Positions 29,946-48,130 of a stretch of DNA of 64,000 bases are shown here, piece by piece. Source of the DNA: a virus (taxonomy: Duplodnaviria; Caudoviricetes). How positions within the stretch are numbered: the stretch's first letter is position 1; every line of letters begins with the position of its first letter. The notes beneath the pieces were generated by a model. That model had not been told where the DNA came from. It did not search any database and was given only the letters and a program-made list of their open reading frames with translations. A program made the translations under genes and the position numbers. The stretch lies in the IMG/VR virus record IMGVR_UViG_3300033984_000268, positions 24,359 through 88,358 of that record. One strand, given 5' to 3'.

Positions 29946-30887
29946 TTAATAACTTTTAAACATGTTCCAATAATTATGATATTGAGCTTTACGATTAGTT
30001 TCCCATATCTTTCTTAACTCTCCAAAGTCTGGTGTATTAACTAATGTATTTGCATTGTTACGAGCAGCTTTAAATCTTTGTTCAACAATTTGAAATTGCA
30101 TTTGTGTAACTGCTTCACCATTCATAACAGCATTTTCAAGCACACGTTGTTTGATTGCATACTCATAATACTCATTCAACATATCATGATCAGGAACCAA
30201 TAAGTTTCCTTCATCATCTTCAAGCATTCCTTGATAGTTCAAATACAATTTTCCTGTAGGAAAAGAAGTGTAAAGAAATCCATTTTTAATATACGCTGTT
30301 GTGCTAGACATCCATTTTTTATTTGGACAATCTAAATCAACTACATTTCCATTATCAACAATTTTTATTGCATGAAATTCAGTCCATGTTCTTGTTTCAT
30401 ATTTAAGTTTTTGAACAAGCATCATTGATTGACCTGTGCAACTTAATGTTACAGAACAAGAAGTATTGCAACCACATGTTTGTGGAACTTGTCCACATGA
30501 ATTACACAGACCTGCTTGAGGATTAACAACTGGTTGTGCACATATATGAACTTCACCTGGGGGTGGTGTGTATAATCCGCCTACAGGAATGTATTCAGTG
30601 TGTGTTCCTTGAATTACAGGCTCTGTTACTTTATGATGACTTATTACCAAAGCAAAATTTAATACATTAAAATTGTTTGGAAGTTTTGCTTTTCCTTTTT
30701 CAATTTCAAGCACTGTTTCATGTGTTTTAAAAACCTTTAACCCAAGGTCGTAATTAACACGCTTTGCAATTTTAATAAATTCTTGAGGATTGATTAAACC
30801 ATCTAAATCAAAATTTCTAAAATCAGTTTGAATCTCTGCCAATAACTGGTCGTAAGTTCTATACTTTAACTCTGTGTGTGCTGCCAT
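29946..30887 (-). CDS. Tail ring / tubular protein with Cys-rich insertion
   Basis: YIKNGFLYTSFPTGKLYLNYQG..DDEGNLLVPD pattern of the crAss-like tail tubular protein; directly upstream of the muzzle-like gene. Confidence 0.65.
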   Translation of the reverse strand: MAAHTELKYRTYDQLLAEIQTDFRNFDLDGLINPQEFIKIAKRVNYDLGLKVFKTHETVLEIEKGKAKLPNNFNVLNFALVISHHKVTEPVIQGTHTEYIPVGGLYTPPPGEVHICAQPVVNPQAGLCNSCGQVPQTCGCNTSCSVTLSCTGQSMMLVQKLKYETRTWTEFHAIKIVDNGNVVDLDCPNKKWMSSTTAYIKNGFLYTSFPTGKLYLNYQGMLEDDEGNLLVPDHDMLNEYYEYAIKQRVLENAVMNGEAVTQMQFQIVEQRFKAARNNANTLVNTPDFGELRKIWETNRKAQYHNYWNMFKSY

Positions 30888-30888
30888 T

Positions 30889-31554
30889 TTATCTGATTAT
30901 GTTTTGTTTATCATCTGATTGATCTACTGGAATTTTTGCCAATGTCATTAATTCTTGTGTACTCATTTGTTCCATTTCTGCAAATAAATAATCTGGAAGA
31001 TTAAATGCTTTTTCTTGCATGATTGTGCAATCATCTTTATCACAATATCCATCTAACGAATCTTCCCACATTGCTTCAACCATTACAGCTTCCCATTCAA
31101 TATCTGGAAAATATAAATACCCATTATTAAACCAAAAATAATTAGTCTTGTTGTATTTAAAATTAGTTGAACGAACCATAGCAACATAAACAGTTGATGA
31201 AACTTGTTGAAACGTATCACTAAAATCTATTGGTCCTATGTTTCTAAAAATTGGTCCGTTGCTTCCGCTAAATACTTTTGGTAGTTTTTCTTTTGTTCTT
31301 CGAATTGTACAACCAGTTTTAATACCAGCGCAGTTTGCTTCAATTTTATCAACTTCAATTAATTCAACAAAAGGAAGTGTTTCAAATAAAGAATCATAAA
31401 CCATAAGTTTACGTTCATTATCCTGTCTTCGAATTAATGCTTTAGAGTACTTTAAAAGTATATTGTATATCAAACGATCTGTAAGAAATGCATCTTCATT
31501 TACCGCTTTAAATACGTTTCTTATTCTGGACGTTGCTTCTTGTATTGTTGTCAT
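30889..31554 (-). CDS. Tail ring protein
   Basis: CTIRRTKEKLP and YFWFNNGYLYFP motifs; synteny with crAss-like ring genes. Confidence 0.55.
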   Translation of the reverse strand: MTTIQEATSRIRNVFKAVNEDAFLTDRLIYNILLKYSKALIRRQDNERKLMVYDSLFETLPFVELIEVDKIEANCAGIKTGCTIRRTKEKLPKVFSGSNGPIFRNIGPIDFSDTFQQVSSTVYVAMVRSTNFKYNKTNYFWFNNGYLYFPDIEWEAVMVEAMWEDSLDGYCDKDDCTIMQEKAFNLPDYLFAEMEQMSTQELMTLAKIPVDQSDDKQNIIR

Positions 31555-31563
31555 AATACTTAT

Positions 31564-32043
31564 TTAAAAATTGTAACTCAATGTTAAACACCGTTGCCAA
31601 TGTTTTCTGAAATACTTACTTGCTGTTCTTTTAAATTCAAGTACCGGAGTAAATGAAAATAAGTTATTATTCTTTATTACATTTCGAACTGAACCGGTGG
31701 AATAAACAATTCTCATGTAGTGTCCATCTGTTTCCCAATTCTTATGATATACTGTTATCCCAACTTCTTTAGAACGCTTGTAATCTACTAATTTCTTTTT
31801 TGGTTTACCTGCATTATTAATACAAATCATACCTATGTTTTCTGGAAGCACTACACCATAAGTATTATTCATAGTTTCTGCTACCATATTTTTATTAAAT
31901 GTTCTTGCAATCTTTATTAAATCATGCATGGTAATATCACTATATTCAGGATGCAATTTTTTAAATTCTTTAACTTCTGCATACTCAATTACTTTTCCTT
32001 TTTGTTCTGTTACCCTTGCTTTTTTTAAATCTGGTATTTGCAT
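31564..32043 (-). CDS. IHF/HU-like basic protein
   Basis: Basic 159 aa protein with VVLPENIGMICI hairpin and VDYKRSKE arm; crAss-like phages carry IHF-like genes among the tail genes. Confidence 0.45.
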   Translation of the reverse strand: MQIPDLKKARVTEQKGKVIEYAEVKEFKKLHPEYSDITMHDLIKIARTFNKNMVAETMNNTYGVVLPENIGMICINNAGKPKKKLVDYKRSKEVGITVYHKNWETDGHYMRIVYSTGSVRNVIKNNNLFSFTPVLEFKRTASKYFRKHWQRCLTLSYNF

Positions 32044-32089
32044 AACTTATAATATAAGAATTTTAAGTCAAAAATACAAATTAAAAAGC

Positions 32090-32119
32090 AAAAAGAAACC
32101 CTCTATTGCTAGAGGGTTC
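32090..32119 (-). terminator. Intrinsic terminator
   Basis: GAACCCTCTA-GCAA-TAGAGGGTTT followed by CTTTTT; GNRA tetraloop. Confidence 0.75.
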
Positions 32120-32133
32120 AAATACAAAGAGTA

Positions 32134-32163
32134 AAAATTGGCCCCGGATTATCCCAGGACCAA
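32134..32163 (-). terminator. Intrinsic terminator (first of a tandem pair)
   Basis: TTGGTCCTGG-GATAAT-CCGGGGCCAA-TTTT; the mismatches are G-U pairs only on the minus strand. Confidence 0.65.
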
Positions 32164-32204
32164 CTCTAGTCAGCCACATTAAACCAACCTCTCTGTGACA
32201 ATCA

Positions 32205-33941
32205 TTAATATTTTATAATGTATCGCATTGTAATACTTTTTTGTCTATTATCTCCTGATGCTGTACCTGTAATTGTTCCGGCACCTGTTCCAGTGATTGG
32301 TCCAGATCCAGTTCCTGACATTGTACCTGTTGCAGCAGTTGTACCTCCTGTACCTGCATTACCTATTGTTCCTGAAAATGTATGGGTGTGATCTATTTGT
32401 TGTTGAGTATCACCACCATTAAAATTACCATCTGCTCCAATTAAAACTCTAGTATAATCACCAGTTCTTGCAGTTACAGGACTAGCATCACCTGATGTAC
32501 CATTTGTAGTAGCGGTCATCAATTGTGCTCTACCACCTCCAATCGACACACCAGTAAGACTATGTGTATGTTCAGGTAAATTTCCAATACCAATTGTAAC
32601 AGATGCTGTACCTGTTACAGTAACAGAAGCATTTCCTGCTAATGTTGCTATAGTTGCAGTTCCAACAACAGTTCCAACAGAAGCATTATCCCCAACTTCA
32701 TTTCCAGTATTTGCAGCTGTTCCACCATAAGGAATTTTATCAATTAAATTTGGAACCGAAAATGTATTTGGGGGTACTGGATTCAAATTATATTCTGTTC
32801 CAATTACACTAAATAAATCACCATACGTTACTGTAGAAACTATTTGACCATCGCATAATAACCATCCAACTGGAACAGTAACACCTACAGCACCAGCCCA
32901 TGGAATAATACCACCTACAGGAAATAAACCTGCACCTGCGCCTTGAGCTGTTGAGTTGCCGCCAGTATTATTTGGTATTGCATCTTGTCCTGGAATATTA
33001 TATGATGCACTTATTTCTGTATTAGCAGCCGGAATACTTCCATTTGCATGAACTAATGTAACTACGTATATATGTGTATTTCCAGAAACTCCTAAACCAT
33101 CTACTTTATAAATACCAAAGTTTGCAGAATTTTGAGCATCAACCAATTGTATAATGCTGTTTTTTACAATTCCTTGAGCCCATTGTAGTCCACCATTTAT
33201 AGCACCTACAGCACCACCATATCCATTTATTGTAGTATGGCTAATTGCTATTTGTGTAACAGCAGTGTAAGTTGCTGCACCACTAACACCTACTGTACCA
33301 GCAACCGCACCATCACCTTTCTTAAAGAGAACTGAATTAGCACCCATGTTTCCTTGAATACCCAATAAACCAGGTGCACCAGCAGAACCAGGAGTTCCCT
33401 GATCTCCTTTAGGAAGAGTAAAGTTTAATGCATACGGATTGGTTCCAGTAACTGCTACTGCAGGTGTTGGTCCTTGTGTAACAACGCCAATAGTTATTGT
33501 AGGTGCAGGTCCAGTTTGACCTGGCGCGCCATTTTGACCAGGATTTCCTTGCTGTCCTTGTTGACCAGGATTTCCTTGTTGACCTTGTGCTCCTGGAGTT
33601 CCACTTCCAACACCTGCTGGTCCTGGAGGTCCTGCCGGTCCTTGAAAACCACGAGGTCCTCTTAATCCTGTTCCACCAGCACCACCATTAGCTCCACCAG
33701 CTCCGTTAGCACCATTACCACCAGCACCGCCATTGTTACCATTAACACCGCCAAAACCATTAGCACCGTTAGTACCATTTCCACCAAAACCATTTGAGCC
33801 ATTGGTTCCATTACCACCACTTGATCCATTACTGCCAAAACCATTGCCACCAAAACTATTGCTTCCATTGCCGCTACTTGAATTATTGCCACTGTTTTGA
33901 CAAGAACCTTTACAACTTTTAACTTTACATTTTATACACAT
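32205..33941 (-). CDS. Collagen-like tail fibre with tail-collar domain
   Basis: Cys-rich N-terminus, Gly/Asn repeats, Gly-X-Y run, collar motif PVGGIIPWAG...GWLLCDG...LFSVIGT...FSVPNL, two HTH metal-binding-type motifs, C-terminal MRYIIKY. Confidence 0.8.
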   Translation of the reverse strand: MCIKCKVKSCKGSCQNSGNNSSSGNGSNSFGGNGFGSNGSSGGNGTNGSNGFGGNGTNGANGFGGVNGNNGGAGGNGANGAGGANGGAGGTGLRGPRGFQGPAGPPGPAGVGSGTPGAQGQQGNPGQQGQQGNPGQNGAPGQTGPAPTITIGVVTQGPTPAVAVTGTNPYALNFTLPKGDQGTPGSAGAPGLLGIQGNMGANSVLFKKGDGAVAGTVGVSGAATYTAVTQIAISHTTINGYGGAVGAINGGLQWAQGIVKNSIIQLVDAQNSANFGIYKVDGLGVSGNTHIYVVTLVHANGSIPAANTEISASYNIPGQDAIPNNTGGNSTAQGAGAGLFPVGGIIPWAGAVGVTVPVGWLLCDGQIVSTVTYGDLFSVIGTEYNLNPVPPNTFSVPNLIDKIPYGGTAANTGNEVGDNASVGTVVGTATIATLAGNASVTVTGTASVTIGIGNLPEHTHSLTGVSIGGGRAQLMTATTNGTSGDASPVTARTGDYTRVLIGADGNFNGGDTQQQIDHTHTFSGTIGNAGTGGTTAATGTMSGTGSGPITGTGAGTITGTASGDNRQKSITMRYIIKY

Positions 33942-33952
33942 AATTTTTTATT

Positions 33953-35974
33953 TTAAATTGAAAGAGGTTTTTGAGGTGAAGCAGATGAAGTTGAAGTTGC
34001 AGGTGTATTTAAAGTTCCATTATTATTTACAAATTTTCCAATACCTGTAACAAAGTTATATTCTAAAACATTTATTCTTTTTGATGCTTTTGGAGTTAAT
34101 GATTCTTGACCAGTTCCATTATAATATAAATCACCACCCATTGTTGAACCGTAAGAACCTGCTGCAGTACCAGCATTTAAATTATTACAAACAATAACCG
34201 GTGGCGTTGTTAATATTGTTTCAACACCACCTACAACTTGAAATACAAAATTAGATAAATTAACTGCAGTTATAGGATTAGCTACAGTATTTGTATAAAA
34301 TTTAGCAGTCATACCTACAGGATATCTACTTGGAGTTTGTTGACTGGTATGCCACCAAGCTCTCATTTCTACAGCAAATGATTCTATAAAAGTAGAAATT
34401 TGTGTAGCTGTATTTGTTCCTACATTTGTACCAGCTAAACCAAATCTTGCTCTAATTTCTTTTACATTTATTAATATTGATTCTGCACCTATACCTGTAT
34501 TATCCCCTGAATGCAAAAGAACAGATTCTTGAGTTAAAGGAATACTACCATTTTTAAAGTAACCGTTTAAATTACTAACACCATCTCTTTTATATTTTGG
34601 AAAAACACCACCACCAGCAGCACCAGTATTAGTATGATGTCTAGCAGAATAACCGTAGTAATGTGAATCAAGTAAAGGATTATTTTCATCAGGTCCAGCA
34701 TAAAGTCTAGTATGTGTATCTAAATCTCTACCTTGAACATCATCTTTAACTACTTTTGTTACACCATTAAGAGTATAAGGTGTAAGATATATATCACCCC
34801 CATTTCCATCAGGCCAAGTATCTGTTGGATCTTTTAAAAATTTATAAGTAAGAACAATATAATCTGCTTGAATTTCAAATTGAACTTCTGTTGAAGGTAC
34901 TCCCGGAACAGGAACACCACCATTCTCAATACAATCTACAGCTATTCTACAAACAGGCACACCACCACATACATCTAATTCACCATTTGCGCAAGTGTAT
35001 TCACTTGGTAATGTTCCAGGAGGTGCTGTTGATATACCTATTAAGTTTTTAGATGAAAAATATATATATGGATTAAGATTAGCTTCAATATTTGTAGCTG
35101 ATAATAATGTTGATTGAAAAGTTGCTAAAGGTATATCATATATTTCAGCAACAACTGATGCTTTTGAAGTGGCTTGTGTTGTTGCATTTTTACCAGTTAA
35201 TTTTATAACATGATTACCTGCAGGCAATGTAATAGGAAAAGCATGTAAATGATAAAAACAAAGTGTATCAGCAGGAGCTGTAAAACCATCAAATATTGTT
35301 ATAAATGGACCAACCCCCCCAATTGTATTTAATGCTACTTCTAATTTTACATAGTTATCTCCAGCAATAGCACAAATATATTCTTTGGCAGTTCCTATAT
35401 TAAAACAAACATTAAATCCAAATTCTTCACCTGCAACAACTTTTGAAGTATCAGTTCTATTCCAAACACCAGCATTATTTAAACGACCTAATGCTAAATT
35501 ACCTGAATTACCTGATGGAAAATCTCTACCCCATAAATCACTTTGAGTTGTACTTAATATAGGTATTGCTACTGACGCAGAATCTTTAACAACTGAACCA
35601 ACATATGTTAAAGGAAGTACAAATGCAGGTGTAGTTAAGTCACCTAAACTTTTAAATAATTTTATACCTAATTTATTATAAGAAGTTTCCGTTAAAGCTT
35701 TTTTAATAATTTGTGGAACACCAGGAAACAAAGGAGATTGAAGAACTTCACATGCACCTGTTAATGCATTTGATGTACTACCTTCAGGACATGTACATAT
35801 ACATGTCATTGGTTTCCAAGTAGGCCAACCAGCAGTATAAGTACCATCATGATAACGAAGATCTCTTACTTTTGGATCAAGTAATTGCCATCCAAGTTGT
35901 CTATCTTTAAAATAAATATCATGGTAACATGGATCTAACCAATTTTGACCATCAAAAATTTTATAATTTCCCAT
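33953..35974 (-). CDS. Putative receptor-binding / fibre-associated protein (673 aa)
   Basis: Beta-rich protein with Cys-rich linkers, located in the fibre block; C-terminal DLDTH...SGDNTGIGAESILIN segment resembles TerD/YfaP-type motifs. Confidence 0.5.
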   Translation of the reverse strand: MGNYKIFDGQNWLDPCYHDIYFKDRQLGWQLLDPKVRDLRYHDGTYTAGWPTWKPMTCICTCPEGSTSNALTGACEVLQSPLFPGVPQIIKKALTETSYNKLGIKLFKSLGDLTTPAFVLPLTYVGSVVKDSASVAIPILSTTQSDLWGRDFPSGNSGNLALGRLNNAGVWNRTDTSKVVAGEEFGFNVCFNIGTAKEYICAIAGDNYVKLEVALNTIGGVGPFITIFDGFTAPADTLCFYHLHAFPITLPAGNHVIKLTGKNATTQATSKASVVAEIYDIPLATFQSTLLSATNIEANLNPYIYFSSKNLIGISTAPPGTLPSEYTCANGELDVCGGVPVCRIAVDCIENGGVPVPGVPSTEVQFEIQADYIVLTYKFLKDPTDTWPDGNGGDIYLTPYTLNGVTKVVKDDVQGRDLDTHTRLYAGPDENNPLLDSHYYGYSARHHTNTGAAGGGVFPKYKRDGVSNLNGYFKNGSIPLTQESVLLHSGDNTGIGAESILINVKEIRARFGLAGTNVGTNTATQISTFIESFAVEMRAWWHTSQQTPSRYPVGMTAKFYTNTVANPITAVNLSNFVFQVVGGVETILTTPPVIVCNNLNAGTAAGSYGSTMGGDLYYNGTGQESLTPKASKRINVLEYNFVTGIGKFVNNNGTLNTPATSTSSASPQKPLSI

Positions 35975-35976
35975 AC

Positions 35977-36639
35977 TTATTGTTTAATCCAAATATCTCC
36001 AGGGCGTAATTTGTTAGCAACATACGTTCCACCTGCAGCAGTTGTGTCGATAAAGTTAGTAGTAAAACCTGGAATACCAGCATAAATATTTTGAAAAACT
36101 ATATCTGTTGGTTCACCATTAGGTCCACCACCAGCAAAATTTTGCGCTGTACTATAGATACCTACAAATACTGCTACACCTCTACCATCTAAACCATTGC
36201 AACCATTATTAAGATTAGCCTGACTTATAATGCTACCGTCGGTTCCTTTTTTATTAACAACCGTTATACCACCATTACAACCACCTGTATATGGTGCAAG
36301 TTCAACAAAGTTTCCATTTTTACCAGTATCACCTGGTAATCCTGGGTTACCTGTAGTTCCAGGTGGGCCTTGTAACCCACTAAGACCATTAACACCAGCA
36401 GGACCGCTTGGCCCTAATGGCCCAGCTGTTCCATCTTTTCCAGGATCACCTTTTGGTCCTGTCGAACCAGCTTCACCCTTATCTCCTTTATCTCCTTTTG
36501 TACCACCTGAACCTTGAGCTCCAGTAAAACCTCGTTCTCCTTGCTCACCTTTATCGCCTTGGTCACCTTTAAAGCCGCGTGGTCCACGTACTCCTTTAGG
36601 AACAGGTGAACATAAACTATTTTTTTCGCAATCGCTCAT
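35977..36639 (-). CDS. Collagen-like fibre protein
   Basis: Long uninterrupted Gly-X-Y run; C-terminal RPGDIWIK. Confidence 0.75.
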   Translation of the reverse strand: MSDCEKNSLCSPVPKGVRGPRGFKGDQGDKGEQGERGFTGAQGSGGTKGDKGDKGEAGSTGPKGDPGKDGTAGPLGPSGPAGVNGLSGLQGPPGTTGNPGLPGDTGKNGNFVELAPYTGGCNGGITVVNKKGTDGSIISQANLNNGCNGLDGRGVAVFVGIYSTAQNFAGGGPNGEPTDIVFQNIYAGIPGFTTNFIDTTAAGGTYVANKLRPGDIWIKQ

Positions 36640-36657
36640 GACTAATTTTTTTCAAAG

Positions 36658-37251
36658 TTAATAATGTATTTTAATATTCGGTCTGTTTGATAACAATGTA
36701 CCTACACCTGTAACAGGTGCAGTAGCACTTGCTTTTGTTATAACTGTATTTGCAACAGTAGAACCATCATTTCCACCAGAATCTCCTTGATATACACCCC
36801 ATTGATTTTCCCAAACTAACATAAGATTTTTTACACCATCGTAAACAAAAGGAGTATCAAGTATAAATTGATACCATACATTGTTGTTTGGTATTCCAAA
36901 TGTAAAAGCAGCTTTAACAGTAGCTAATCCAGTAAGAGTTAATCCTGCAAATGACATGTCTGGACTTGCACTAAAAACAGCTTGATCAACCATTGCTAGT
37001 TTAAGTTCTTGATTAGGAAAAGATCTAGGTGTTGCATAACTTCTAAAATACAAACTTACAGCTGTAATAGTTTTAGGACCACCTAATTCAGCTGCTGTCC
37101 AAATAACAGCAGTCTTACCATATTTATCCGAACCATTTAATATTAAATTATAAACACGTGTAGAACCTGTACCAATTTGTAAAACCCCTCCGGTAACTGG
37201 AGGGGTTACACTAACATCTCTGTGTCTTAATATTCCTATATGACTTTGCAT
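36658..37251 (-). CDS. Beta-sandwich fibre-associated protein
   Basis: WYQFILDTPFVYDGVKNLMLVW...RPNIK pattern resembles modules of Bacteroidota surface proteins. Confidence 0.45.
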   Translation of the reverse strand: MQSHIGILRHRDVSVTPPVTGGVLQIGTGSTRVYNLILNGSDKYGKTAVIWTAAELGGPKTITAVSLYFRSYATPRSFPNQELKLAMVDQAVFSASPDMSFAGLTLTGLATVKAAFTFGIPNNNVWYQFILDTPFVYDGVKNLMLVWENQWGVYQGDSGGNDGSTVANTVITKASATAPVTGVGTLLSNRPNIKIHY

Positions 37252-37253
37252 AA

Positions 37254-38696
37254 TTATACTTTTAAATCACCACCTAAAAACCAAACTCCAGCTGAATTAA
37301 GTGTCATTGTTCCAAATGAATATTGTACTCTTAATCTTTTTTCAGCACCAGTTGAATTAAGTATTTCTGTTTGAGCTGGTGATACTCCACTTGTTCCTCC
37401 AACAAAAGTTACTTCACCAGTACCTTGTCTAATAATAGTACATGTAAATCCAACAGGCGGAAGTGCATCTAAAAATACACCTGTTTTTGTAGCAATCGTA
37501 ATAGCAGTACTTGTATTAATATAAATAATACTATTGTTATGCCAAGGTCTTAATACAAAAACACTACCGCTATTAACAGTATATACTTCAGGAATTGATT
37601 CACAAAGCCAACCATAAGTATATGAATACGTTGCTGTTATTGGATTATAAATAGTTGTTTTTAAACTATATGTATAAACAGCATTTCTATCTGTATTATA
37701 AACTTGATACCCAACAGCAACAGTTAATGCAAGCATTTCTGCATTTGTTTTACTTGGTAATATATAAGGATTAGTTAATTGAAAACCAGGAATTGGCCAT
37801 ATTCCAGCACCCTTTGGTCCATACATCATGTATGTATTTGTATTTAAATAGAAATCTCCATTTACTCCTAAAGAGTTACTTGGAACAGTTGTTCCATTTA
37901 AAACTGTTTTTCCATCTGCACCATTTAAACCATTGGTTCCATTAGTACCATTCGTACCATTTATACCAGCGGATCCAGTTGCACCAGCACTACCTGTAGG
38001 ACCAGCAGGACCAGTAGGGCCTGTGGGTCCTGTTAAACCAATTGGACCAGTAGGGCCAGTTGCGCCAGTAATACCTTGAGGTCCAGTAGGGCCAGTTGCA
38101 CCACCTGTACTTAATAAAGCCCATTGTGCACCATTTGCTGTTGGATTAACTCCAGTTACAGGTCCATTCCATACCCAATAAGAAGCTCCGTTGTATAAAG
38201 CTGTATCATTAGTAACATAAGTTGTACCAGCAGCATAATCACCTTTCCAAACTAATCCACCTGGAGAAAGTCCAGGATTACCTTGAATACCGGTTGCACC
38301 AGTCAATCCAGTTGCACCTGTTGGGCCAGCAGGACCTGTTGGACCTTGTGAACCGTTGGTACCATTAGTGCCACGCATAGATGTAGCAGTACCCCATACA
38401 CCTGCAGTTTTAGGTCCGTATAAATCTAACGTAACAGTATTAATGTAAAAATCTCCATTATTACCTAATGCATTAGAAGGTACAACAATACCATTTAAAG
38501 TTGATTTTCCATCAGCTCCTGTTGGACCAGTTGCTCCATCTACTGGAAGACCAAAAACTTCTTGCCATGCTAAATTTCTCCATACATAATACTTATCATC
38601 AACATCTACATAATATGCAACATGTGGCAAAGTTCCTAATGCTGGTCTATTAATAGCCAACGGAACAACAATAATTTGAAAACTTGAATTTGACAT
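37254..38696 (-). CDS. Collagen-like fibre protein with duplicated GDFY.N...YGPK module
   Basis: Gly-X-Y runs; two copies of GADGK..LNG..VPSN.LG.NGDFY.NT.T...YGPK..G.W; C-terminal W.L.GDL tip motif. Confidence 0.8.
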
Positions 38697-38706
38697 ATCT
38701 TAATAA

Positions 38707-39990
38707 TTAATCTGTTATATTAGCAATTTGTTCAGAATCTACAGAATCATAATACGATAACCTTAATCCACTAGCACTGTTCATAAACAGTTTTTTATTA
38801 TAATTTGCATAAACGTGTAATGCAAGCGTAAAATCTGTATTTGCTACATCAATTTCTATCGATGTATTTTTAAATGTATTTATAGTAATGTTATTTTGAA
38901 ATAATAAACCTATTACATTAATCATTGAATTAATTTTATTAAAACTAAATAATCCAGCGAATGATACATTTGTGCAAGAACCAGTAAATAAATTTGAACT
39001 AAATTCACTAGAAAATGATAGATTGTACACATGATCTAAAAAAGTTCCGTTTTGAGAATCAGATTTAAATGTTACATTATCTGCTGATTTTGCAAAAACT
39101 ATATTAGGTAAATCAAACGTGTTAACGAGAGATGATGCACCAGCTGCTATACTTGTATTTCTAACTACATGAAGTCCGCTAAAATTAAATGTAGGAAATA
39201 ATTGACTACCTAAACCTAAATCATAATATGATGAAAATACACCTAATGCATCTGCATATCTTTTAAATTTAACACGTCTGTGATCATAATCTGTTTCATT
39301 TCCATATTCATCTTTACGATAAAGAATGCGTCCTTTAGTAGCAAAACCACCAACAGGTGTTGTATATTCAAGTTGATAATGAATAATATCTTTTGGGTAT
39401 GCAACATCAAATGCTTCAAGTTGTAATTGATTTGAACTTAATGCAAATACAATTAATGGACTTACTATTTCAGTTTGCAATGTTGTTGGAAGAGCACGTG
39501 TAACAGGAGTTGCATATTCAGGTAAATCATACATTGTAGCAAAGTCTGTTATTCTATAATACTCACCACGTTGCAAAGTATTATTTATTTTTAAATTTAA
39601 TAAATTCGCATGTGTAATATCAACAATAGTTGCACCAGTAGGTGATGGTAAATTTGAAAATAAATTTTGAAAATAATCGACTACGCTTTCTAATGATATA
39701 TTAATATCATCTCCTTCATTATAGATAGTTACGCCACCTACAATTTTATCTTCTGGTGTATGTGTTTTTTCACAGTAGTAGTCTGTTATTGATCCAAATA
39801 TTTTTGCAAGTGAATCTCCTTTAGAATAGATCTTATCTAAACCACAAAATTTATTTTCACCAACGTGTAATACACATTCAGATGAAACAACTTCTGCACA
39901 AGGTTGTGGTGTTGCACACACAACTGGATTACATTCTGCACATGGTACAGATGGAGTTGGTGTGCTTTGATTACATGATGAACATCCCAT
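38707..39990 (-). CDS. Putative tail fibre/spike with Cys-rich N-terminus and beta-helix-like C-terminus
   Basis: MGCSSC...C..C...C..C...SSECV N-terminus; YYRITDF and GRILYRKDEYGNE.DYD motifs; periodic N/F repeats. Confidence 0.55.
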   Translation of the reverse strand: MGCSSCNQSTPTPSVPCAECNPVVCATPQPCAEVVSSECVLHVGENKFCGLDKIYSKGDSLAKIFGSITDYYCEKTHTPEDKIVGGVTIYNEGDDINISLESVVDYFQNLFSNLPSPTGATIVDITHANLLNLKINNTLQRGEYYRITDFATMYDLPEYATPVTRALPTTLQTEIVSPLIVFALSSNQLQLEAFDVAYPKDIIHYQLEYTTPVGGFATKGRILYRKDEYGNETDYDHRRVKFKRYADALGVFSSYYDLGLGSQLFPTFNFSGLHVVRNTSIAAGASSLVNTFDLPNIVFAKSADNVTFKSDSQNGTFLDHVYNLSFSSEFSSNLFTGSCTNVSFAGLFSFNKINSMINVIGLLFQNNITINTFKNTSIEIDVANTDFTLALHVYANYNKKLFMNSASGLRLSYYDSVDSEQIANITD

Positions 39991-40010
39991 AATTTTATTA
40001 TTTAATTTTA

Positions 40011-40727
40011 TTAACTTCTGTTGTAAAAACCTGTTAAGTATGAATAATATTGATTGGTTGTCATAATTGTCATATCACATCCATCGCATTTTACAACTAT
40101 ACCTCTTTGAAATAATTGTATAAAAAACGCACTTAACTCTAATTTACTTAATGCAGGTGAAATTGTTTTTAAAAAATTAAGCATTATGCCTAATCCACTT
40201 TTTCCACCAAAAGTTGATGCTTCAACTAATCCATTTTGTATTACAGTATCATCTGCACCAGTTAATTTAACTAATTCTTGAATTGAAGAAACAAAATCAT
40301 TTGAACAACAAGTTGGCGTTTTATCATAAATTATATTATCTTCAATTTGAGATTCAGTTGGTTTAAATTGATTAAAATAATCACCGCGAATCTCCATAGG
40401 TAGTTGATAATTAACACAACATCTATATTTTAAATTTTTATTAAAAGGAGTAGCTTCAGGAACACCATAAGGTAATGTGTTACCTAAACCATTTATTTCA
40501 ATTAAATCATTAAAACGATATGCTGTACCTAAAAAATAAAAACCATTTTTTGAATCACAATCAGGACAACAAAAGTTCGAACTAGATGTAATAGAAATTC
40601 CAGCATCTAAAACTGTATCTAAACTTACAGAAATTGAAACACCATCGGAAACTTTTCCAAATACTTCTTTAATTAAAAACACCAATGGGTTTATGCATGG
40701 TGTTGGTATATTACAATCTACTGACAT
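40011..40727 (-). CDS. Cys-rich putative structural protein (paralogue A)
   Basis: CCPDC..GFYFLG and GIVVKC.GC motifs shared with the adjacent gene. Confidence 0.55.
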   Translation of the reverse strand: MSVDCNIPTPCINPLVFLIKEVFGKVSDGVSISVSLDTVLDAGISITSSSNFCCPDCDSKNGFYFLGTAYRFNDLIEINGLGNTLPYGVPEATPFNKNLKYRCCVNYQLPMEIRGDYFNQFKPTESQIEDNIIYDKTPTCCSNDFVSSIQELVKLTGADDTVIQNGLVEASTFGGKSGLGIMLNFLKTISPALSKLELSAFFIQLFQRGIVVKCDGCDMTIMTTNQYYSYLTGFYNRS

Positions 40728-40737
40728 AATTTTTTAT

Positions 40738-41445
40738 TTAAGAACATGTTTTATCATTATAACCGTTTGCTACAGCCCAAGCATTAAAAGTGTTTGTACT
40801 AGCGATTATAATACCACAATCAAAACATTTAACTACTATACCTAACGTATCAAATAATGCTGTAAATATTGCACTCCATTCTATTTCAGTTATACCTGAA
40901 TATTTTGCAGATATAGATGTTACTAATGTTCCTATAGAAGAAGCGTTTTTTATTGTGTTAAATTCAATTAATCCCATTGATGAAAACAATGCAGGATTAT
41001 TTATCATTTGTCCAAGAATTGCTACATCAGATGTAAAACTGGTATTACAACATTCTGGTTTAATTTTAATATTAGCACTATATATTGCATGAGTTGGTCT
41101 GTCTGCATAAATATTTAAACAACATGGTGCTTTACATGAAATCGAAGTTGTATTAAATTTAAAAGTTACAGACAATGCATTAAATTTAGCTAAACCGCCT
41201 AAAAAATAAAATCCATACCTATCATTACAATCTGGACAACAAAGGCCAGAATCATTTGATGTAATAATACCATTGTTCAATAGCGTTGTAGCTTTTGCAA
41301 TAAAATTATCAAGATCATGATCAACATCAGAGTTATAAATTTGATCTATCAAATACTCTAATGGATGTTTGCAAACAACACAAGAACTTGGAGTTACTGG
41401 AGTGTTACAACACACTGGACTATTTATATTGATTGAATTTCCCAT
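40738..41445 (-). CDS. Cys-rich putative structural protein (paralogue B)
   Basis: CCPDC..GFYFLG and GIVVKCFDC; TAATG coupling to the upstream gene. Confidence 0.55.
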   Translation of the reverse strand: MGNSININSPVCCNTPVTPSSCVVCKHPLEYLIDQIYNSDVDHDLDNFIAKATTLLNNGIITSNDSGLCCPDCNDRYGFYFLGGLAKFNALSVTFKFNTTSISCKAPCCLNIYADRPTHAIYSANIKIKPECCNTSFTSDVAILGQMINNPALFSSMGLIEFNTIKNASSIGTLVTSISAKYSGITEIEWSAIFTALFDTLGIVVKCFDCGIIIASTNTFNAWAVANGYNDKTCS

Positions 41446-41966
41446 TATCCTGTAATTAATGCATCAACTTTAGTTTGTAAATCTAAAATTGAAACTTGCA
41501 TGTTAGCAATAGTTTGATTTTGATTTTGAAGAGTTGTATAAAAGTCACAAACTTTTAATCCAATTAAAGTAACATAATTATTAATTTGTGTTACAGTACC
41601 ACCAGCTTGCGCTTCAAAACAACCAGCTACAACAACTTCACAATCAGGACAACCTGATGCAACAGTTCCAGTAGATGTAGGTGATGCACCGCCAGATTTA
41701 ATTGTACATAATTCATCTAAAATTGCTTGAATTAAATCGATGAATGTTTTTAAGTCGCAAGTATCTGCAATACAAGACGCATCATAATTTGAAACATCTG
41801 TATATGTTAACAACAAACAAATCTTTTCTGCAAATTGTGCCAATACTTCACTAATAGTATCCCCATTACATAATTGTAAAAAAGGAATATCAGGTCCTTG
41901 CCATACTACACAATTGCTTGATGTAGTGACGCATCCTGTTGGTTTTGTATTTGTCGGTCTTCCCAT
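41445..41966 (-). CDS. Cys-rich fibre-base/adaptor-like protein with C-terminal coiled coil
   Basis: SSNCVVWQGPDIPFLQLCNGD motif; C-terminal heptad repeats. Confidence 0.55.
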   Translation of the reverse strand: MGRPTNTKPTGCVTTSSNCVVWQGPDIPFLQLCNGDTISEVLAQFAEKICLLLTYTDVSNYDASCIADTCDLKTFIDLIQAILDELCTIKSGGASPTSTGTVASGCPDCEVVVAGCFEAQAGGTVTQINNYVTLIGLKVCDFYTTLQNQNQTIANMQVSILDLQTKVDALITG

Positions 41967-42002
41967 ACTATAATATAATTAATTTTTTAATAAAAAGCAA
42001 AT

Positions 42003-42641
42003 CTATGGACAACAAATAGAGTTGTCAGTAATTAAATCCAACTTCAAAACTTCCATGTCAATTTTTGCGGATGTGAAATCTGAAGGACAACAAAATTTAA
42101 TTCCAAATTTTAATGTCTGAATTTCTTTAAAAATGACATCTGCAAAAGTACACATAATTGTTTCGACTTTTTCAGGATCTAGTTTATTGTAATCTGGTTC
42201 AGCATAAATAATTTTTTTAGTAACTACCATGCCAGGTTCTTCATATACTGGATCAGGAAGACATTCTGCACAAGTTCCAACAGTTTCTACCTCAACAAAG
42301 TATTCAGCAAAAGGAATGACAGATATACCATCAACTAAACAACCTTCTTCTAACTTGAAACAACCGCAAACAACATTACCACTTTCATCAGTAATAGATG
42401 TAATAACTTTTTCAAGTAAATCATCTGGGTGTACTCCATTAGTTGTACCACTAAAAGAAAATATTGTGGGTTTGCCGCCAACATTACAAGGTTCATTATC
42501 ACAACATTGAACGAGTTGATAATATTCATTGTTATCAGTATTAGTTGTTTCGTCACTAAAAGTGTAATATGTACCAGTGTAGTCCTCTAAATCAAAATAA
42601 AGAAACCTTGGTTGAAACCCTGTAAGTATATCAAGTATCAT
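42003..42641 (-). CDS. Putative tail hub-like protein, Cys-rich
   Basis: C-terminal MCTFAD.I...KFGIKFCC; position corresponds to the crAss-like hub genes (inference from synteny). Confidence 0.45.
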   Translation of the reverse strand: MILDILTGFQPRFLYFDLEDYTGTYYTFSDETTNTDNNEYYQLVQCCDNEPCNVGGKPTIFSFSGTTNGVHPDDLLEKVITSITDESGNVVCGCFKLEEGCLVDGISVIPFAEYFVEVETVGTCAECLPDPVYEEPGMVVTKKIIYAEPDYNKLDPEKVETIMCTFADVIFKEIQTLKFGIKFCCPSDFTSAKIDMEVLKLDLITDNSICCP

Positions 42642-42811
42642 TATTGTTTGGTTTTAACAGTTGGTACAACTGGCTGTGCAGGTTGTACTGGAGTATTTTG
42701 AGAATTGTACAAATTAACGCATACAGAACAACATTGTGCTCCGTTTAATGCTACTACTAAATAAGAACCACCGCAAGTACAAGTACCGCAATTTGAACAT
42801 GAAACTGCCAT
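42641..42811 (-). CDS. Small Cys-rich protein (56 aa), not in the ORF track
   Basis: Manual translation MAVSCSNCGTCTCGGSYLVVALNGAQCCSVCVNLYNSQNTPVQPAQPVVPTVKTKQ; fills the gap exactly and has TAATG overlap with the next gene. Confidence 0.8.
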   Translation of the reverse strand: MAVSCSNCGTCTCGGSYLVVALNGAQCCSVCVNLYNSQNTPVQPAQPVVPTVKTKQ

Positions 42812-42813
42812 AA

Positions 42814-43374
42814 TTAAAATATTTTACATGAAAAAGCATCTAATAATTTTTTAGCATAGTTAAATATAACCATACCTTTTTCTGCATCTAAGCAATATTC
42901 AACACTTGCTTTTGCTGCATCTATATATCCACTGATGCGCATTAAGTCTTTAAACTTTGCATCTGTTTCCGCACCTGGTTCACAAGCACCTAATTGTAAT
43001 TTACATAACTCTGCTTTCAGTTGTTTTTTGATTGCAGTTGTGCGTAAATGATTATACTCTACGTACAATTGTTCATTTGGTGATATAGAATATTTAATTA
43101 CATAAACCCCATCAGGAAGTTCACTAAATAAAACACCGCAGTTTGTACCTTGTAGTTTTAATTCACATGCAGTTAGATTAAAGATAAATCCTTTTTGTAC
43201 TACTATAGGAACAGTGGTAGTGTTAAATTCCACACAATCTTTAAACCCAGGAACTAACACTTGAAGTGTAGGGCAAAGGTAGGGCATAATTGGTTCATAC
43301 CAACTTGTATCTTCAATTCGAAGGATGCAATCCGTTTGAATATCAGGAATATTTAAACTTAATTTATTTGTCAT
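42814..43374 (-). CDS. Putative tail hub-like protein
   Basis: Start re-assigned to ATG 43374 (MTNKLSL) because the track extension runs through a terminator; LPDGVYVIKYSISP motif; synteny. Confidence 0.5.
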   Translation of the reverse strand: MTNKLSLNIPDIQTDCILRIEDTSWYEPIMPYLCPTLQVLVPGFKDCVEFNTTTVPIVVQKGFIFNLTACELKLQGTNCGVLFSELPDGVYVIKYSISPNEQLYVEYNHLRTTAIKKQLKAELCKLQLGACEPGAETDAKFKDLMRISGYIDAAKASVEYCLDAEKGMVIFNYAKKLLDAFSCKIF

Positions 43375-43386
43375 AACGTCAAAGTT

Positions 43387-43426
43387 AAAAAAAAAGGAGA
43401 ATAGAGAAACCTCCATCCTCCTTTTT
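43387..43426 (-). terminator. Intrinsic terminator
   Basis: AAAAAGGAGGATGGAG-GTTT-CTCTATTCTCCTTTTTTTTT, with G-U pairs on the minus strand. Confidence 0.8.
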
Positions 43427-43449
43427 ATGAAGAAACTTAATTGTAATTC

Positions 43450-44970
43450 TTACAATGCAGCAGCAGTAAATGTTGCATGAGCAAATGTTTCTAAAGCAAC
43501 ACCTTGTCCAGCAGCAGTTAACCATGCAGCCATAAATGTTTCGAAATCTGTAGCAGCTCCAGAAGCAGTTGGTACATAGATAACCAATGAATATTGATCA
43601 TCATCATAAACACTTGATGGATTATTACGACGAGGAACTACGTGTTGAATTACGTAACGTGTGTATAACACATTAGGAATTGCAGTAAACAATTGATCTC
43701 CTTGATTAATTTGACGCAATCTTACATCATCATGGAAATGATTTTGTAAATAAGACTCATCTAAGATAACGTCTTTCAATACAGTTCTACCAAAACCTTG
43801 ACCAGCAAATCCAGCAAATTCTTCTTGAACACAAATACCTTTGAAGTCACATGGAAGACCAGTTAAATCTGTCAAAGATGCTTTGATTCTTACAATCTCT
43901 CTTTCTTGGAAATCAGATTTTTGGAAAGAACAAGTTCCAAATTCAGTATCGATGTAAGCACCAACTAAACGTAAACCAGCAACTTTACCAGCAACGTGAG
44001 CTACAGGAACGTATGCATCCATTAATGCCAAAGTATCTAATTTAACACCAGCTTCAGTATAAACGATAGGTTGGATAAAGTCTTTCAAGAATACATCATT
44101 CATGATTTGTTTAGCCCAATCAATCATTACTGTTGTAGAATCAACAGCAGAAGGAACCGCACCATTTGCACAACATCCTGTGTAAGCAGCTAATGTTCTA
44201 TAAGCATCATGATTTAACAATCTTAACACTGGAGAACCATACAAGTCTAATCTCAAGTTATATGTTTCACCACATAAGAAATCAAAGTTTGCACAAGAAG
44301 GAGCAACAGTCAATGTGATTGTTGGAGCAGTTGTTGCTGTATAGCCAGCAAGAGCATTTGTAGGTATTGTTAATACGTTGGTAGAAACATACGCACCATT
44401 TCCTCTATCGCGCACAACAACTGCAGTAATAATACCACCAGCAACAGTAACGTCAACAGTTAATCCAGTACCAGCACCACCAGTTGTTGGTAAGTCTTGG
44501 AATGTACCATTCGTAGTGATTGTACCACCAGTTGTGATTGCAGCAACAATGTTATCTAAATTTGTTGCACCAATATGAACAATATTTTGTTCAGCTGCAG
44601 CACCAACAACTTTAAAGAATTTGTTAATGTGCAAAGGATTAATCAATTTTGATTTGTTTGCTTCATTGTATCCACCATGGAAAGGACCGATTTTGTCATC
44701 TTTCATTAACGAACTAGCCGCTAAATGTAATGGAACCGCTCTACCACCAACAACACCTGTTAAAACAGATTTGAAAGTTTTTGGATCAAAGAAACCATAA
44801 GCTCCTGCGCCTAATCCATAGGGAGCAGCAGATTTTGATAAACTTCTTGTGTGAACACCAGCTTCGATTACGAAACCGTTGTTTAATGCTACAGTCGTGT
44901 TAGCAACTGATGCTTGAGTACCCTTTGAGCCTACAAAAGACTTGCGAAAGGATGAATTGAAATAACTCAT
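43450..44970 (-). CDS. Auxiliary capsid / abundant structural protein (506 aa)
   Basis: SKLINP..I.KF and CGETYNLRLDL.GSP motifs; MCP-like codon bias; own promoter motif and terminator; synteny with the crAss-like auxiliary capsid gene. Confidence 0.6.
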   Translation of the reverse strand: MSYFNSSFRKSFVGSKGTQASVANTTVALNNGFVIEAGVHTRSLSKSAAPYGLGAGAYGFFDPKTFKSVLTGVVGGRAVPLHLAASSLMKDDKIGPFHGGYNEANKSKLINPLHINKFFKVVGAAAEQNIVHIGATNLDNIVAAITTGGTITTNGTFQDLPTTGGAGTGLTVDVTVAGGIITAVVVRDRGNGAYVSTNVLTIPTNALAGYTATTAPTITLTVAPSCANFDFLCGETYNLRLDLYGSPVLRLLNHDAYRTLAAYTGCCANGAVPSAVDSTTVMIDWAKQIMNDVFLKDFIQPIVYTEAGVKLDTLALMDAYVPVAHVAGKVAGLRLVGAYIDTEFGTCSFQKSDFQEREIVRIKASLTDLTGLPCDFKGICVQEEFAGFAGQGFGRTVLKDVILDESYLQNHFHDDVRLRQINQGDQLFTAIPNVLYTRYVIQHVVPRRNNPSSVYDDDQYSLVIYVPTASGAATDFETFMAAWLTAAGQGVALETFAHATFTAAAL

Positions 44971-45047
44971 TTTTTACAGTTTTTAATTATTAAATAATAC
45001 ATTAAGTAAATAATATACAAAATGTTTTTCAAAAATGCAAGACTTTC

Positions 45048-45191
45048 TTAACATTTATTTTTTGATGATCCGCCCATTGATTTTTTAGGCATTGCTTTTT
45101 TTGCTCCAGCCTTTGCTGGTGCGGCTTTCTTCGCCCATGGTGGAACCCATGCTCCTTTTGCAGGTGCGGCTTTTTTCTTTGCTACTGCCAT
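45048..45191 (-). CDS. Small Lys/Ala/Pro-rich basic protein (47 aa), not in the ORF track
   Basis: Manual translation MAVAKKKAAPAKGAWVPPWAKKAAPAKAGAKKAMPKKSMGGSSKNKC; A-rich leader; no acidic residues. Confidence 0.75.
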   Translation of the reverse strand: MAVAKKKAAPAKGAWVPPWAKKAAPAKAGAKKAMPKKSMGGSSKNKC

Positions 45192-45218
45192 TTTTATTTA
45201 TATTTATTGATTACACGA

Positions 45219-45920
45219 TTAATTATTTTGCTCTACTGATTGTTCAGCAATTTGATTTGCTGTAATGCTTTCAATATCTCCTGTGATGATTTTTACACAT
45301 TCATCAATTAGTAATTCAATTACATCATCTTTAAATTCACATTCAACTTCTTCTAAAGAAGGTTGTGTGGTGTAAGGATCCACTGTTCCTAAAATTTGAA
45401 TTCTTCTTGGTTGTTTAAAGTATGTTAGCACTATGTCCTGAACATCAAATTTATTGTTGGTATATATTTTAATTACATTACCACCCATTGTACAAAAAGT
45501 TTCAGCCCATTGAAAGTTTGGATTTTTATTTACATCACGTAATAATTCATCCACGTTTCCTTCTTCAGCTAAATAAATCATAGCAGGTCTTGGTTCACAA
45601 CAGTCTGCTTTCATTTTAGCACTTATCCTTTTCCACTGGAAATAATCTTTAGGAAAAGAGTTTGATGCATAGTACCCATCTTTCTTTCCAAACTGCATAG
45701 AAAGAGTTGTAAGTAATACTTGAATATCATCTATACGTCTATTTGAAGATTCATTTCCAGTTTTTGTAAGATTGGTTCCTTGAATTTGTCTTCGACACCA
45801 ACCAACCATACCTTTGTTAAATGCTTCTACGATTTGCCAGTCCATGATGTTATCATAGTCATTACTAGCAAGTTTATTCATTCGCTGTTTAACCTTTACT
45901 TTGATTACTGAATTTTTCAT
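45219..45920 (-). CDS. Tail ring / head-tail connector protein
   Basis: ESSNRRIDDIQVL, P.FQWAET and LTYFKQP motifs; synteny. Confidence 0.6.
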   Translation of the reverse strand: MKNSVIKVKVKQRMNKLASNDYDNIMDWQIVEAFNKGMVGWCRRQIQGTNLTKTGNESSNRRIDDIQVLLTTLSMQFGKKDGYYASNSFPKDYFQWKRISAKMKADCCEPRPAMIYLAEEGNVDELLRDVNKNPNFQWAETFCTMGGNVIKIYTNNKFDVQDIVLTYFKQPRRIQILGTVDPYTTQPSLEEVECEFKDDVIELLIDECVKIITGDIESITANQIAEQSVEQNN

Positions 45921-46365: not shown

Positions 46366-46367
46366 AA

Positions 46368-46780: not shown

Positions 46781-46786
46781 ATCAAT

Positions 46787-47782: not shown

Positions 47783-47807
47783 GTTCGTTGGTTTAATTTT
47801 GTACTGA

Positions 47808-47815: not shown

Positions 47816-47817
47816 AT

Positions 47818-47845: not shown

Positions 47846-47850
47846 GCAAT

Positions 47851-48117: not shown

Positions 48118-48130
48118 AATAATTAAGTTT

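Follow-up and report, generated by a model that had tools for sequence, protein, structure and literature searches.

A conserved hairpin behind the tail collar fibre gene of a freshwater phage and its complementarity to the leaders of capsid-module genes

The element behind the collar fibre gene

The DNA analysed here, referred to below as the window, is a stretch of 64,000 nucleotides (nt) that comprises bases 24359-88358 of one virus record of 88,358 bases (IMG/VR record IMGVR_UViG_3300033984_000268), whose completeness is estimated by CheckV at 74%. The window has a guanine-plus-cytosine (G+C) content of 33%, and every long reading frame in it lies on the minus strand. Judging by several gene assignments (portal, major capsid protein, collar fibre, CrAss_Ring_1 and CrAss_Ring_2, giant reading frames), the phage is a freshwater crAss-like phage. 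Our subject is a short element at the end of its tail genes: a hairpin, termed P1, that follows the stop codon of a tail collar fibre gene, precedes intrinsic terminators, and displays in its loop a sequence complementary to the leaders of capsid-module genes. The collar fibre gene is the last of a co-directional run of tail genes, and its stop codon (32207-32205) lies directly before the element. The features of this locus are the following.

32205-33941, minus strand: 578-amino-acid (aa) tail collar fibre gene (Pfam Collar PF07484, 3.2e-14; PHROG tail collar fibre families)
32173-32199, minus strand: hairpin P1, from the minimum free energy (MFE) fold and comparative pairing
32199-32194, minus strand: 5' arm of P1, GUCACA
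32193-32179, minus strand: 15-nt loop of P1
32181-32189, minus strand: loop core GGUUGGUUU, the candidate seed; invariant columns in the first alignment (A1), complement of AAACCAAC
32188-32181, minus strand: invariant part of the loop core, GUUGGUUU
32178-32173, minus strand: 3' arm of P1, UGUGGC
32168-32173, minus strand: 3' flank CUGACU, complement of the AGUCAG that heads the leader of a 423-aa gene; can also pair with the seed
32124-32167, minus strand: intrinsic terminator 1 (15-pair stem at 32167-32134, 4-nt loop, T tract)
32086-32119, minus strand: second terminator-like hairpin (stem at 32119-32096, then a T tract)
31564-32043, minus strand: conserved 159-aa gene 3' of the element and syntenic with it

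Following the TAA stop codon, the minus strand reads tgATTGTCACAgagagGTTGGTTTAATGTGGCTGACT; on the plus strand, positions 32168-32188 read AGTCAGCCACATTAAACCAAC. The G+C content of the element is 46%, compared to 33% for the window. A preliminary description of this DNA had reported the sequence behind the fibre stop codon, a hairpin with a T tract, and matches to the leaders of distant genes, and all four of its statements on these points are correct, coordinates included. In both hairpins behind P1, a T tract on the transcribed strand comes after a G+C-rich stem, which is the layout of an intrinsic terminator. The second of them is also present in two related loci (L001 and L002), while most other relatives have one terminator, and it is followed in the window by a promoter-like stretch and then by the ATG of the 159-aa gene. 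The element hence occupies, on the sense strand, a position between a stop codon and the intrinsic terminator of the same mRNA, which is where an RNA borne by a 3' untranslated region (3'-UTR) is found.

In the MFE fold of the window copy the loop core of P1 is open, and the core also resides in an open loop in the MFE folds of seven out of ten divergent copies. A conserved seed that is predicted to be single-stranded is a further property of 3'-UTR-borne RNAs. The UUGG in the loop fits the YUNR pattern, which we take to be that of the U-turn in antisense recognition loops. A G-quadruplex built from the GGTTGG runs was considered as well and was dropped, since distant copies possess just two GG runs.

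Conservation and covariation of the hairpin

Exact-pattern scans of IMG/VR revealed the same arrangement in about 20 contigs that differ from each other in their terminator stems and upstream genes. An alignment of 19 copies (A1) was converted into a covariance model (R1), with which we searched 28 long records picked from the best 80 of at least 600 capsid relatives in IMG/VR. Some match at an E value of up to 0.1 was obtained in 24 of these records; true copies, consisting of the hairpin plus a terminator, were found in 18 (E value of 1.1e-5 or better), and the other matches were reverse complements of leaders or bare terminators. The figure of 18 out of 28 is a lower bound because the default filters of the search missed real copies in three records (G015, G023, and G008), which were recovered by synteny or a motif scan and confirmed with the filters switched off (30.7, 21.1, and 12.8 bits, respectively). 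With these included, the hairpin is present in 21 of the 28 records, and the other seven are estimated to be 26-56% complete. All 18 model matches (E value <1e-4) are on the strand of the capsid gene, and there is one strong copy per genome.

A second, independent route led via the relatives of the 159-aa gene (alignment A3), of which the best 80 of 266 were inspected; some of these loci are on contigs already met by the first route, and the set contains 27 distinct hairpin sequences. In 78 loci, a script detected a hairpin whose loop contains TTGTTGGTT or GGTTGGTT and behind which a terminator lies, and one more (L267) was recognized by eye, so that the hairpin is present in 79/79 evaluable loci (L311 has no upstream DNA and is not evaluable). 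The downstream protein in most of these loci is just 29-37% identical to that of the window. The hairpin is located 100-175 nt upstream of the conserved downstream gene in 74 of the 78 copies, a stop triplet lies at most 8 nt upstream of it in 70, and a terminator comes after it in all of them.

The stem of P1 varies in a manner that preserves its pairing. There are 23 different stem pairs among the 78 copies, for instance GTTACAG/CTGTGAC, GTTGCAG/CTGTAAC, CACGTT/AGCGTG, AGTGG/CCACT, TAGTTG/CAACTA, GATAG/CTATC, AGTCTGG/CTGGACT, and AGCGG/CCGCT. In a covariance-model alignment of 31 distinct rows (A2), which is fitted to the model and contains one row that is the reverse complement of a leader, five of the six P1 pairs have changed on both sides, and 99.5% of the cells are paired. 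For the structure as a whole, none of 500 shuffles reached any of five measures, and slid controls paired in 35-57% of the cells. One position of the stem is U-G in 18 rows and U-A in 13; since U-G pairs are mismatches on the opposite strand, the stem pairing works solely in RNA of the sense strand. The stem of terminator 1 likewise varies in sequence among relatives with its pairing kept, all eight of its pairs having changed on both sides.

The loop core is invariant in 19/19 of the first copies, one of which reads GUUGGUUG; departures are limited to one copy that ends in G and one that is shortened. The 3' flank is less constant: CUGACU is invariant in close relatives and is replaced by CUAAC or CAAC, or is missing, in distant copies. 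The AGTCAG/CUGACU half of the complementarity noted in the preliminary description is consequently a property of the close relatives and is lost in the distant ones, whereas the layout of a seed plus a terminator in a 3'-UTR, which the same description had proposed, corresponds to a conserved, strand-specific RNA structure with a terminator. Judged by these alignments, the element is a conserved structured RNA on the sense strand.

Since the 3' flank can also pair with the seed, the element might operate as a conformational switch, in which the seed GUUGGUU would be either free, with P1 formed, or paired with the flank (G-R-CUGAC, CUAAC, or CAAC), and in which the balance of the two states would set the efficiency of the terminator and thereby how much transcription of the tail operon continues into the genes for ring, cargo, and polymerase proteins. 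The alternative helix is indeed the one that RNAalifold prefers on the first alignment, 98% of its cells are paired with one-sided changes that keep the pairing (U-G to U-A), and the MFE folds of three of the ten divergent copies use it or a similar helix. We nevertheless consider such a switch improbable: two-sided changes are absent from its pairs, the shuffled control matches what was observed in 500/500 cases, many of its pairs are G-U, some copies have lost the flank, and P1, with which the alternative helix is mutually exclusive, truly covaries. A switch would also leave the match to the leaders unexplained.

Complementarity of the loop to capsid-module leaders

The sites in the window to which the element is complementary, together with the genes that they precede, are listed here.

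51097-51120, minus strand: leader of the 423-aa gene, reading AGUCAGUAAUAAAACCAACACAUU; best predicted target, with AAACCAAC at 51109-51102
49825-51096, minus strand: 423-aa gene, first gene of the major-capsid operon
48182-49798, minus strand: major capsid gene, in the same operon as the 423-aa gene
47783-47808, minus strand: leader of the 331-aa gene, with ATTAAACCAAC at 47797-47787, an exact complement of the loop over 11 nt
46787-47782, minus strand: 331-aa capsid-module gene
59392-59400, minus strand: third match (ATTGTCACA/TGTGACAAT), upstream of an 86-aa gene at 59117-59377

On the minus strand, AGTCAGTAATAAAACCAAC (51102-51120) is found 5 nt before the ATG of the 423-aa gene, and GTCAGTACAAAATTAAACCAAC (47787-47808) ends 4 nt before the ATG of the 331-aa gene. 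Both sites belong to a box that is widespread among relatives. Using the capsid protein as a guide, we collected the leaders of the 400-460-aa gene preceding the capsid gene from 78 loci; among the 72 distinct leaders, 51 contain AAACCAAC within their last 25 nt and 68 contain ACCAA. The three commonest 8-mers in these leaders are AAAACCAA, AAACCAAC, and AACCAACA, and the end of the box is mostly 3-6 nt away from the ATG. For the 331-340-aa gene behind the capsid gene, 48 of 66 loci have AACCAAC at a distance of at most 25 nt from the ATG and 61 have ACCAA; two copies are frequent. Because most other leaders of the window's genome have neither the AAACCAAC box nor a Shine-Dalgarno sequence, the box behaves as would a special start signal of a small set of structural genes. 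Complementarity between the CUGACU flank and an AGUCAG heading the leaders is confined to close relatives, and other leaders begin differently.

Two observations on neighbouring leaders may be recorded here. The sole Shine-Dalgarno-like string seen among the leaders is an AAGGAGG (window 43417-43449) that abuts the ATG of a 200-aa gene (42814-43416) with no spacer, and at that position it could hardly function as one. Between the capsid gene and the 331-aa gene (window 47818-48181) there is an 88-aa gene (47851-48117) with terminator-like hairpins on either side; many relatives are without this insert, and their 338-aa gene begins 70-140 nt after the capsid terminator.

A sigma-70-type scan identified a -10 element, TATATT, ending at 51127, and the RNA of the 423-aa operon would on this account start near the A of AGUCAG at 51120. 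Read as a Bacteroidota-type promoter, TATTTTTG further upstream would begin the RNA earlier; the box at 51109-51102 is predicted to be transcribed under either reading. Likewise, the AAACCAAC located 4 nt before the ATG of the 331-aa gene should be part of its mRNA. In the crAss-like phage phi14:2, the host polymerase is reported to transcribe the middle and late genes, and one promoter precedes the gene in front of the capsid gene (bioRxiv 10.1101/2020.03.07.982082).

Since the GTCAG of the two window leaders is at, or adjoins, promoter-like boxes and the motif is present in both orientations, the preliminary description had raised the alternative of an orientation-independent DNA site, that is, a stretch of double-stranded DNA at the capsid promoters and behind the fibre gene to which a regulator would bind in either orientation. 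Our data disfavour this explanation, and we regard it as very improbable. Covariation of a stem that includes U-G pairs (18 of the 31 rows) is meaningless in duplex DNA, GTCAG and AAACCAAC stand at variable distances of 3 to 7 nt, GTCAG is lost in distant relatives while loop and box are kept, and the inverted copy is always found within a hairpin followed by a terminator, on the transcribed strand.

The joint motif is rare. AGTCAG-N2-8-AAACCAAC has two matches in the window, compared to 0.01 expected, and none of 100 shuffles gave two; GTCAG with a spacing of N2-12 has four matches in the 88-kilobase (kb) genome, namely the element (antisense), the leaders of the 423-aa and 331-aa genes, and one site outside the window. 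The 10-mer alone, with one mismatch allowed, was found 17 times versus 11.4 expected, a number that is not unusual since 8 of 100 shuffles reached it. Short A/T-rich matches of this kind are common and the 10-mer occurs at background level, which is what one would see if the locus were an ordinary terminator region with chance resemblances; given that hairpin and loop are kept in 79/79 evaluable loci while terminator stems and upstream genes differ, the chance of this being the whole explanation is close to negligible.

When the duplex energies of the 41-nt element with 73 gene starts were calculated, the leader of the 423-aa gene ranked first and that of the 331-aa gene third. Compared with dinucleotide shuffles of the element, a control that the preliminary description had called for, the significance within this genome was modest: the best single duplex was reached by 17 of 300 shuffles and the sum of the top three by 1 of 300. 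Scoring the net cofold energy over positions -30 to +30 of the 73 gene starts placed the 423-aa gene at rank 1 (-16.2 kcal/mol) and the 331-aa gene at rank 2 (-12.7 kcal/mol), with the site outside the window third (-11.7 kcal/mol) and the next best gene start at -8.8 kcal/mol; 400 random coding windows had a mean of -3.8 kcal/mol (standard deviation 2.3, minimum -13.4), and three of them reached -12 kcal/mol or lower. The two capsid leaders thus stand well clear of the coding background.

The complementarity is conserved across genomes. In all 19 genomes for which both partners were available, the loop and the leader of the capsid operon share an uninterrupted Watson-Crick run of 7-11 nt (up to 12 with G-U pairs) situated between positions -20 and -1 relative to the ATG; the run measures at least 7 nt in 19/19 and at least 8 nt in 18/19 of them, and 11-12 nt in a distant group, whose loop UUUGUUGGUUU meets AAACCAACAAA(U) up to position -2. 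Random 35-nt windows from the same strand of the same loci (1900 in total) gave a mean run of 4.4 nt, with 4.7% of them reaching 7 nt and 1.2% reaching 8 nt. An unplanned check came from the covariance model, whose next-best match in the window's genome is the reverse complement of the 423-aa leader (24.4 bits, E value of 1.8e-5); its next-best matches are reverse-complemented leaders in G005, G007, G009, G011, G014, G016, and G019 as well. A seed complementary to the initiation regions of its targets and conserved across relatives is what one finds in 3'-UTR-borne RNAs. An additional pairing of UGUCA in the element with UGACA at the start of the 423-aa gene was discarded as not general, for the second codon varies among orthologs.

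The complementarity to three leaders claimed in the preliminary description stands for the initiation regions of the 423-aa and 331-aa genes, and fails for the third one. At 59392-59400, TGTGACAAT is absent from all four orthologous leaders examined, the pairing would involve the 5' stem arm of P1 and not its loop, and the site falls outside the top ten once positions -30 to +30 are scored. This site overlaps a box similar to TAnnTTTG, the -7 promoter consensus of Bacteroidota. Of the four orthologs of the 86-aa gene (L253-L256), three begin with ATGTCAGAACAAACCAACC, which places GTCAG..AAACCAACC within the first seven codons; the fourth reads ATGTCAGAAAACACCAACC, and the window copy has CCAACC alone there. 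The fourth GTCAG..AAACCAAC site of the genome, at genome positions 4927-4943 on the plus strand (L237 1428-1444), lies 19.4 kb before the window, behind an exonuclease-like gene. It may lead into a 117-aa gene or else encode the first residues of a 126-aa version of that gene; the latter is conceivable because ATG-TCA-GAA... is in frame with the downstream ATG.

Starting from these observed properties, i.e., the structure, its strand and conservation, the conserved complementarity, and the ranking of the targets, we propose that the element could be an anti-leader RNA that resides on, or is cut from, the 3' end of the tail-operon transcript and whose loop would pair with the AAACCAAC box of capsid-module mRNAs, thereby modulating their translation; we give this proposal an even chance of being right. 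At the 3' end of the tail transcript, the conserved module comprises a hairpin of 6-10 base pairs (bp) whose loop displays GUUGGUUU, then a short linker, and then an intrinsic terminator. The RNA might act while still attached to the tail-operon mRNA as its untranslated end, or after release as a fragment of ~70 nt. Its loop would pair over 8-12 bp with the single-stranded AAACCAAC box and would so mask the landing site of the small ribosomal subunit in leaders without the usual Shine-Dalgarno sequence, and the synthesis of capsid proteins would be coupled in this way to transcription of the tail operon. That the two RNAs meet, and that the element is processed to a small RNA, we infer; repression is our default guess for the sign of the effect. 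A more specific version, which we find possible yet rather doubtful, holds that AAACCAAC might be this clade's substitute for the Shine-Dalgarno sequence on its most highly expressed structural mRNAs, and that the hairpin might be a dedicated anti-leader setting the head:tail ratio post-transcriptionally.

A number of findings weigh against pairing of the loop with the leaders as the function of the element. P1 alone folds with -7.7 kcal/mol (z score -0.72), and 47 of 200 shuffles are equally good; the support for P1 comes from comparison and not from thermodynamics. The seed is tied up with the 3' flank in the MFE folds of three of the ten divergent copies, and the statistics within the single genome are modest, as seen from the 17 shuffles that reach the best duplex. 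On the side of the targets, the exact 8-mer AAACCAAC is missing from 21 of the 72 distinct capsid-operon leaders, and the A/C-rich box could be conserved purely as a translation signal. The transcription start sites for both leaders are those predicted from the sequence; for the 331-aa leader, a TAAATTTG box has the G of GTCAG as its last base, and GTCAG may belong to the promoter or lie upstream of it, outside the RNA. Among the sequencing runs listed as containing the phage, none is on record as RNA; in a comparison of one metatranscriptome with 31501-51500, seven partial pieces of 22-44 nt were found, and a fraction of 0.93 of this material continues unlike the stretch. Compensatory changes between element and targets, which the preliminary description had suggested looking for, are absent in lineage-specific form: the mean run is 8.95 nt for same-genome and 8.80 nt for cross-genome pairs, and 543 of 2000 permutations are as good. 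With an invariant seed there is nothing to compensate for, and because cross-genome pairs do equally well, the support for the interaction consists of two conserved complementary motifs and not of compensatory evolution.

Finally, the combination of a covarying stem and an invariant loop is likewise characteristic of hairpins to which proteins bind. The element could be a protein-binding or cis-acting RNA signal at an operon boundary, e.g., a control site for (anti)termination of the nut/boxB type, a 3'-end stability element, or an operator for the 159-197-aa protein encoded downstream, and the complementarity between a G/U-rich loop and an A/C-rich translation signal would then be coincidental. 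In favour of this explanation are the fixed place of the hairpin, which is directly followed by one or two terminators and, 100-175 nt on, by the same gene (74 of 78 copies), the lack of co-variation between loop and leader, and the presence of the box in records where no hairpin was seen, which are fragmentary. The explanation requires, however, an exact complementarity by chance over 8 nt (11-12 in the distant group), a length of 8 nt being reached by 1.2% of random windows; it has to cope with a single strong copy per genome that is placed at the end of an operon and not at its head; and no candidate binding protein was found, the downstream protein having no Pfam or PDB match and a model of low confidence. 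We therefore judge a protein-binding or cis-acting signal to be a serious but rather unlikely alternative to the anti-leader RNA.

Genomic setting and comparison with known systems

The remaining assigned genes of the neighbourhood and of the head module are as follows.

30889-31554: CrAss_Ring_2, after the 159-aa gene
29946-30887: CrAss_Ring_1, after CrAss_Ring_2
51226-53961: portal gene

The relatives of the 159-aa protein are 159-197 aa in length. No Pfam match and no PDB sequence match was obtained for it; it belongs to one PHROG to which no function is assigned, and its AlphaFold model has a mean predicted local distance difference test (pLDDT) value of 51.5, i.e., low confidence. A promoter-like block, ...TATATTTG(C/T)TAAAGTCA...TAGTATATTA, is strongly conserved before this gene (window 32044-32095; L266-L345). 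Since the ATG follows TATATTA at a distance of 0-12 nt in many relatives, the mRNA of the gene may be leaderless or nearly so. ACCAAC was found in none of 54 distinct regions upstream of it.

The giant reading frames comprise 1664, 2344, and >2800 codons. The frame that is open at the left edge (window 1-8598, extending upstream to genome position 21434) is part of a frame of 3840 codons, which borders on one frame of 2344 codons (8600-15634) and another of 2024 codons (beyond the window); these three frames presumably encode the virion cargo or RNA polymerase proteins that crAss-like phages typically possess. The capsid module (window 45048-46780, minus strand) contains four small, very basic, Lys/Ala-rich proteins of 47, 55, 93, and 95 aa, two of which end in KKKK; they could be internal or DNA-associated virion proteins. 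A 56-aa frame between two tail-module genes (42641-42811, minus strand) has seven cysteines within its first 31 residues (MAVSCSNCGTCTCGG...).

The DNA sequencing runs that contain the phage stem from lake and other freshwater metagenomes. A blastn search with 31400-33400 against a phage collection gave no match, and the closest capsid protein in that collection is only 27.8% identical, so that any isolate is a distant relative. The strict pattern of the element had no match in a collection of genome contigs. Capsid relatives were found in 15 contigs of metagenome-assembled genomes (within L238-L252) bearing mutually incompatible taxon labels, among them Chitinophagaceae, Bacteroidales, Micavibrio, Clostridium, Campylobacteraceae, Rickettsiales, and Gammaproteobacteria; contigs of phage origin seem to have ended up in bacterial genome bins.

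crAss-like phages rank among the most abundant of all known phages. Small RNAs of phages are the subject of a review (PMC12197685); our literature search on crAss-like phages in combination with antisense RNA or small RNA returned no report of control at the RNA level. The present analysis defines two paired conserved motifs in a large freshwater branch of crAss-like phages, a start-proximal AAACCAAC box and a hairpin that carries its exact complement. If the two interact, they would form a simple circuit balancing head and tail synthesis in a virulent phage and would bear on translation initiation in leaders without a Shine-Dalgarno sequence; an anti-leader RNA would be the first regulatory RNA known in crAss-like phages and would provide a handle on ribosome recruitment to particular mRNAs in hosts not dependent on Shine-Dalgarno pairing. 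Without such an interaction, the hairpin would still be a new, well-supported structured RNA motif awaiting its partner.

A scan of 31900-32400 with Rfam 15 (E value up to 10) gave eight weak and unrelated matches, all far below the gathering scores, and none of the phage antisense families, those of the P1/P7 c4 and P4 CI type included, matched the region. CpxQ, SroC, and DapZ represent a class of bacterial base-pairing small RNAs that are derived from 3'-UTRs and share the terminator of their parent mRNA. The element resembles them in its place between a stop codon and the mRNA's own intrinsic terminator, in a conserved single-stranded seed just before that terminator, and in its predicted pairing over several initiation regions. 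It differs from them in being encoded by a phage, of the virulent crAss-like type, whose own capsid genes are the predicted targets, in presenting its seed in a hairpin loop, and in facing an A/C box that is not a Shine-Dalgarno sequence; it has no sequence relationship to this class.

The c4 RNAs of P1/P7 and the CI RNA of P4 are small and structured, and they form part of, or are excised from, a longer phage transcript; like them, the element has a loop complementary to mRNA sites of its own phage that lie in or close to ribosome-binding regions. Those two kinds of RNA control immunity and lysogeny genes of temperate elements on the same transcript, whereas the element is located behind a tail-fibre gene and matches capsid leaders 15-19 kb upstream. 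Sites of the lambda nut/boxB type occur more than once, after promoters. The element shares with them a short hairpin with a covarying stem, an invariant loop and a conserved linear flank, and it stands just before terminators; unlike them, it is present in a single copy at the 3' end of a tail-gene run and not in several copies at operon heads, and its loop of 10-17 nt is complementary to conserved leaders, which that of boxB is not. No N-like protein was recognized, although no search aimed at arginine-rich antiterminators was made.

The phi14:2 phage offers a parallel on the side of the targets, as host-polymerase promoters lie directly before the gene preceding its capsid gene and the capsid transcript is the most abundant one; neither a leader box nor a 3' hairpin is described in the available part of that study (bioRxiv 10.1101/2020.03.07.982082). 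On balance, the element would best be filed with the terminator-sharing, seed-bearing antisense RNAs, and it appears functionally reminiscent of the c4 and CI RNAs while being unrelated to them in sequence.

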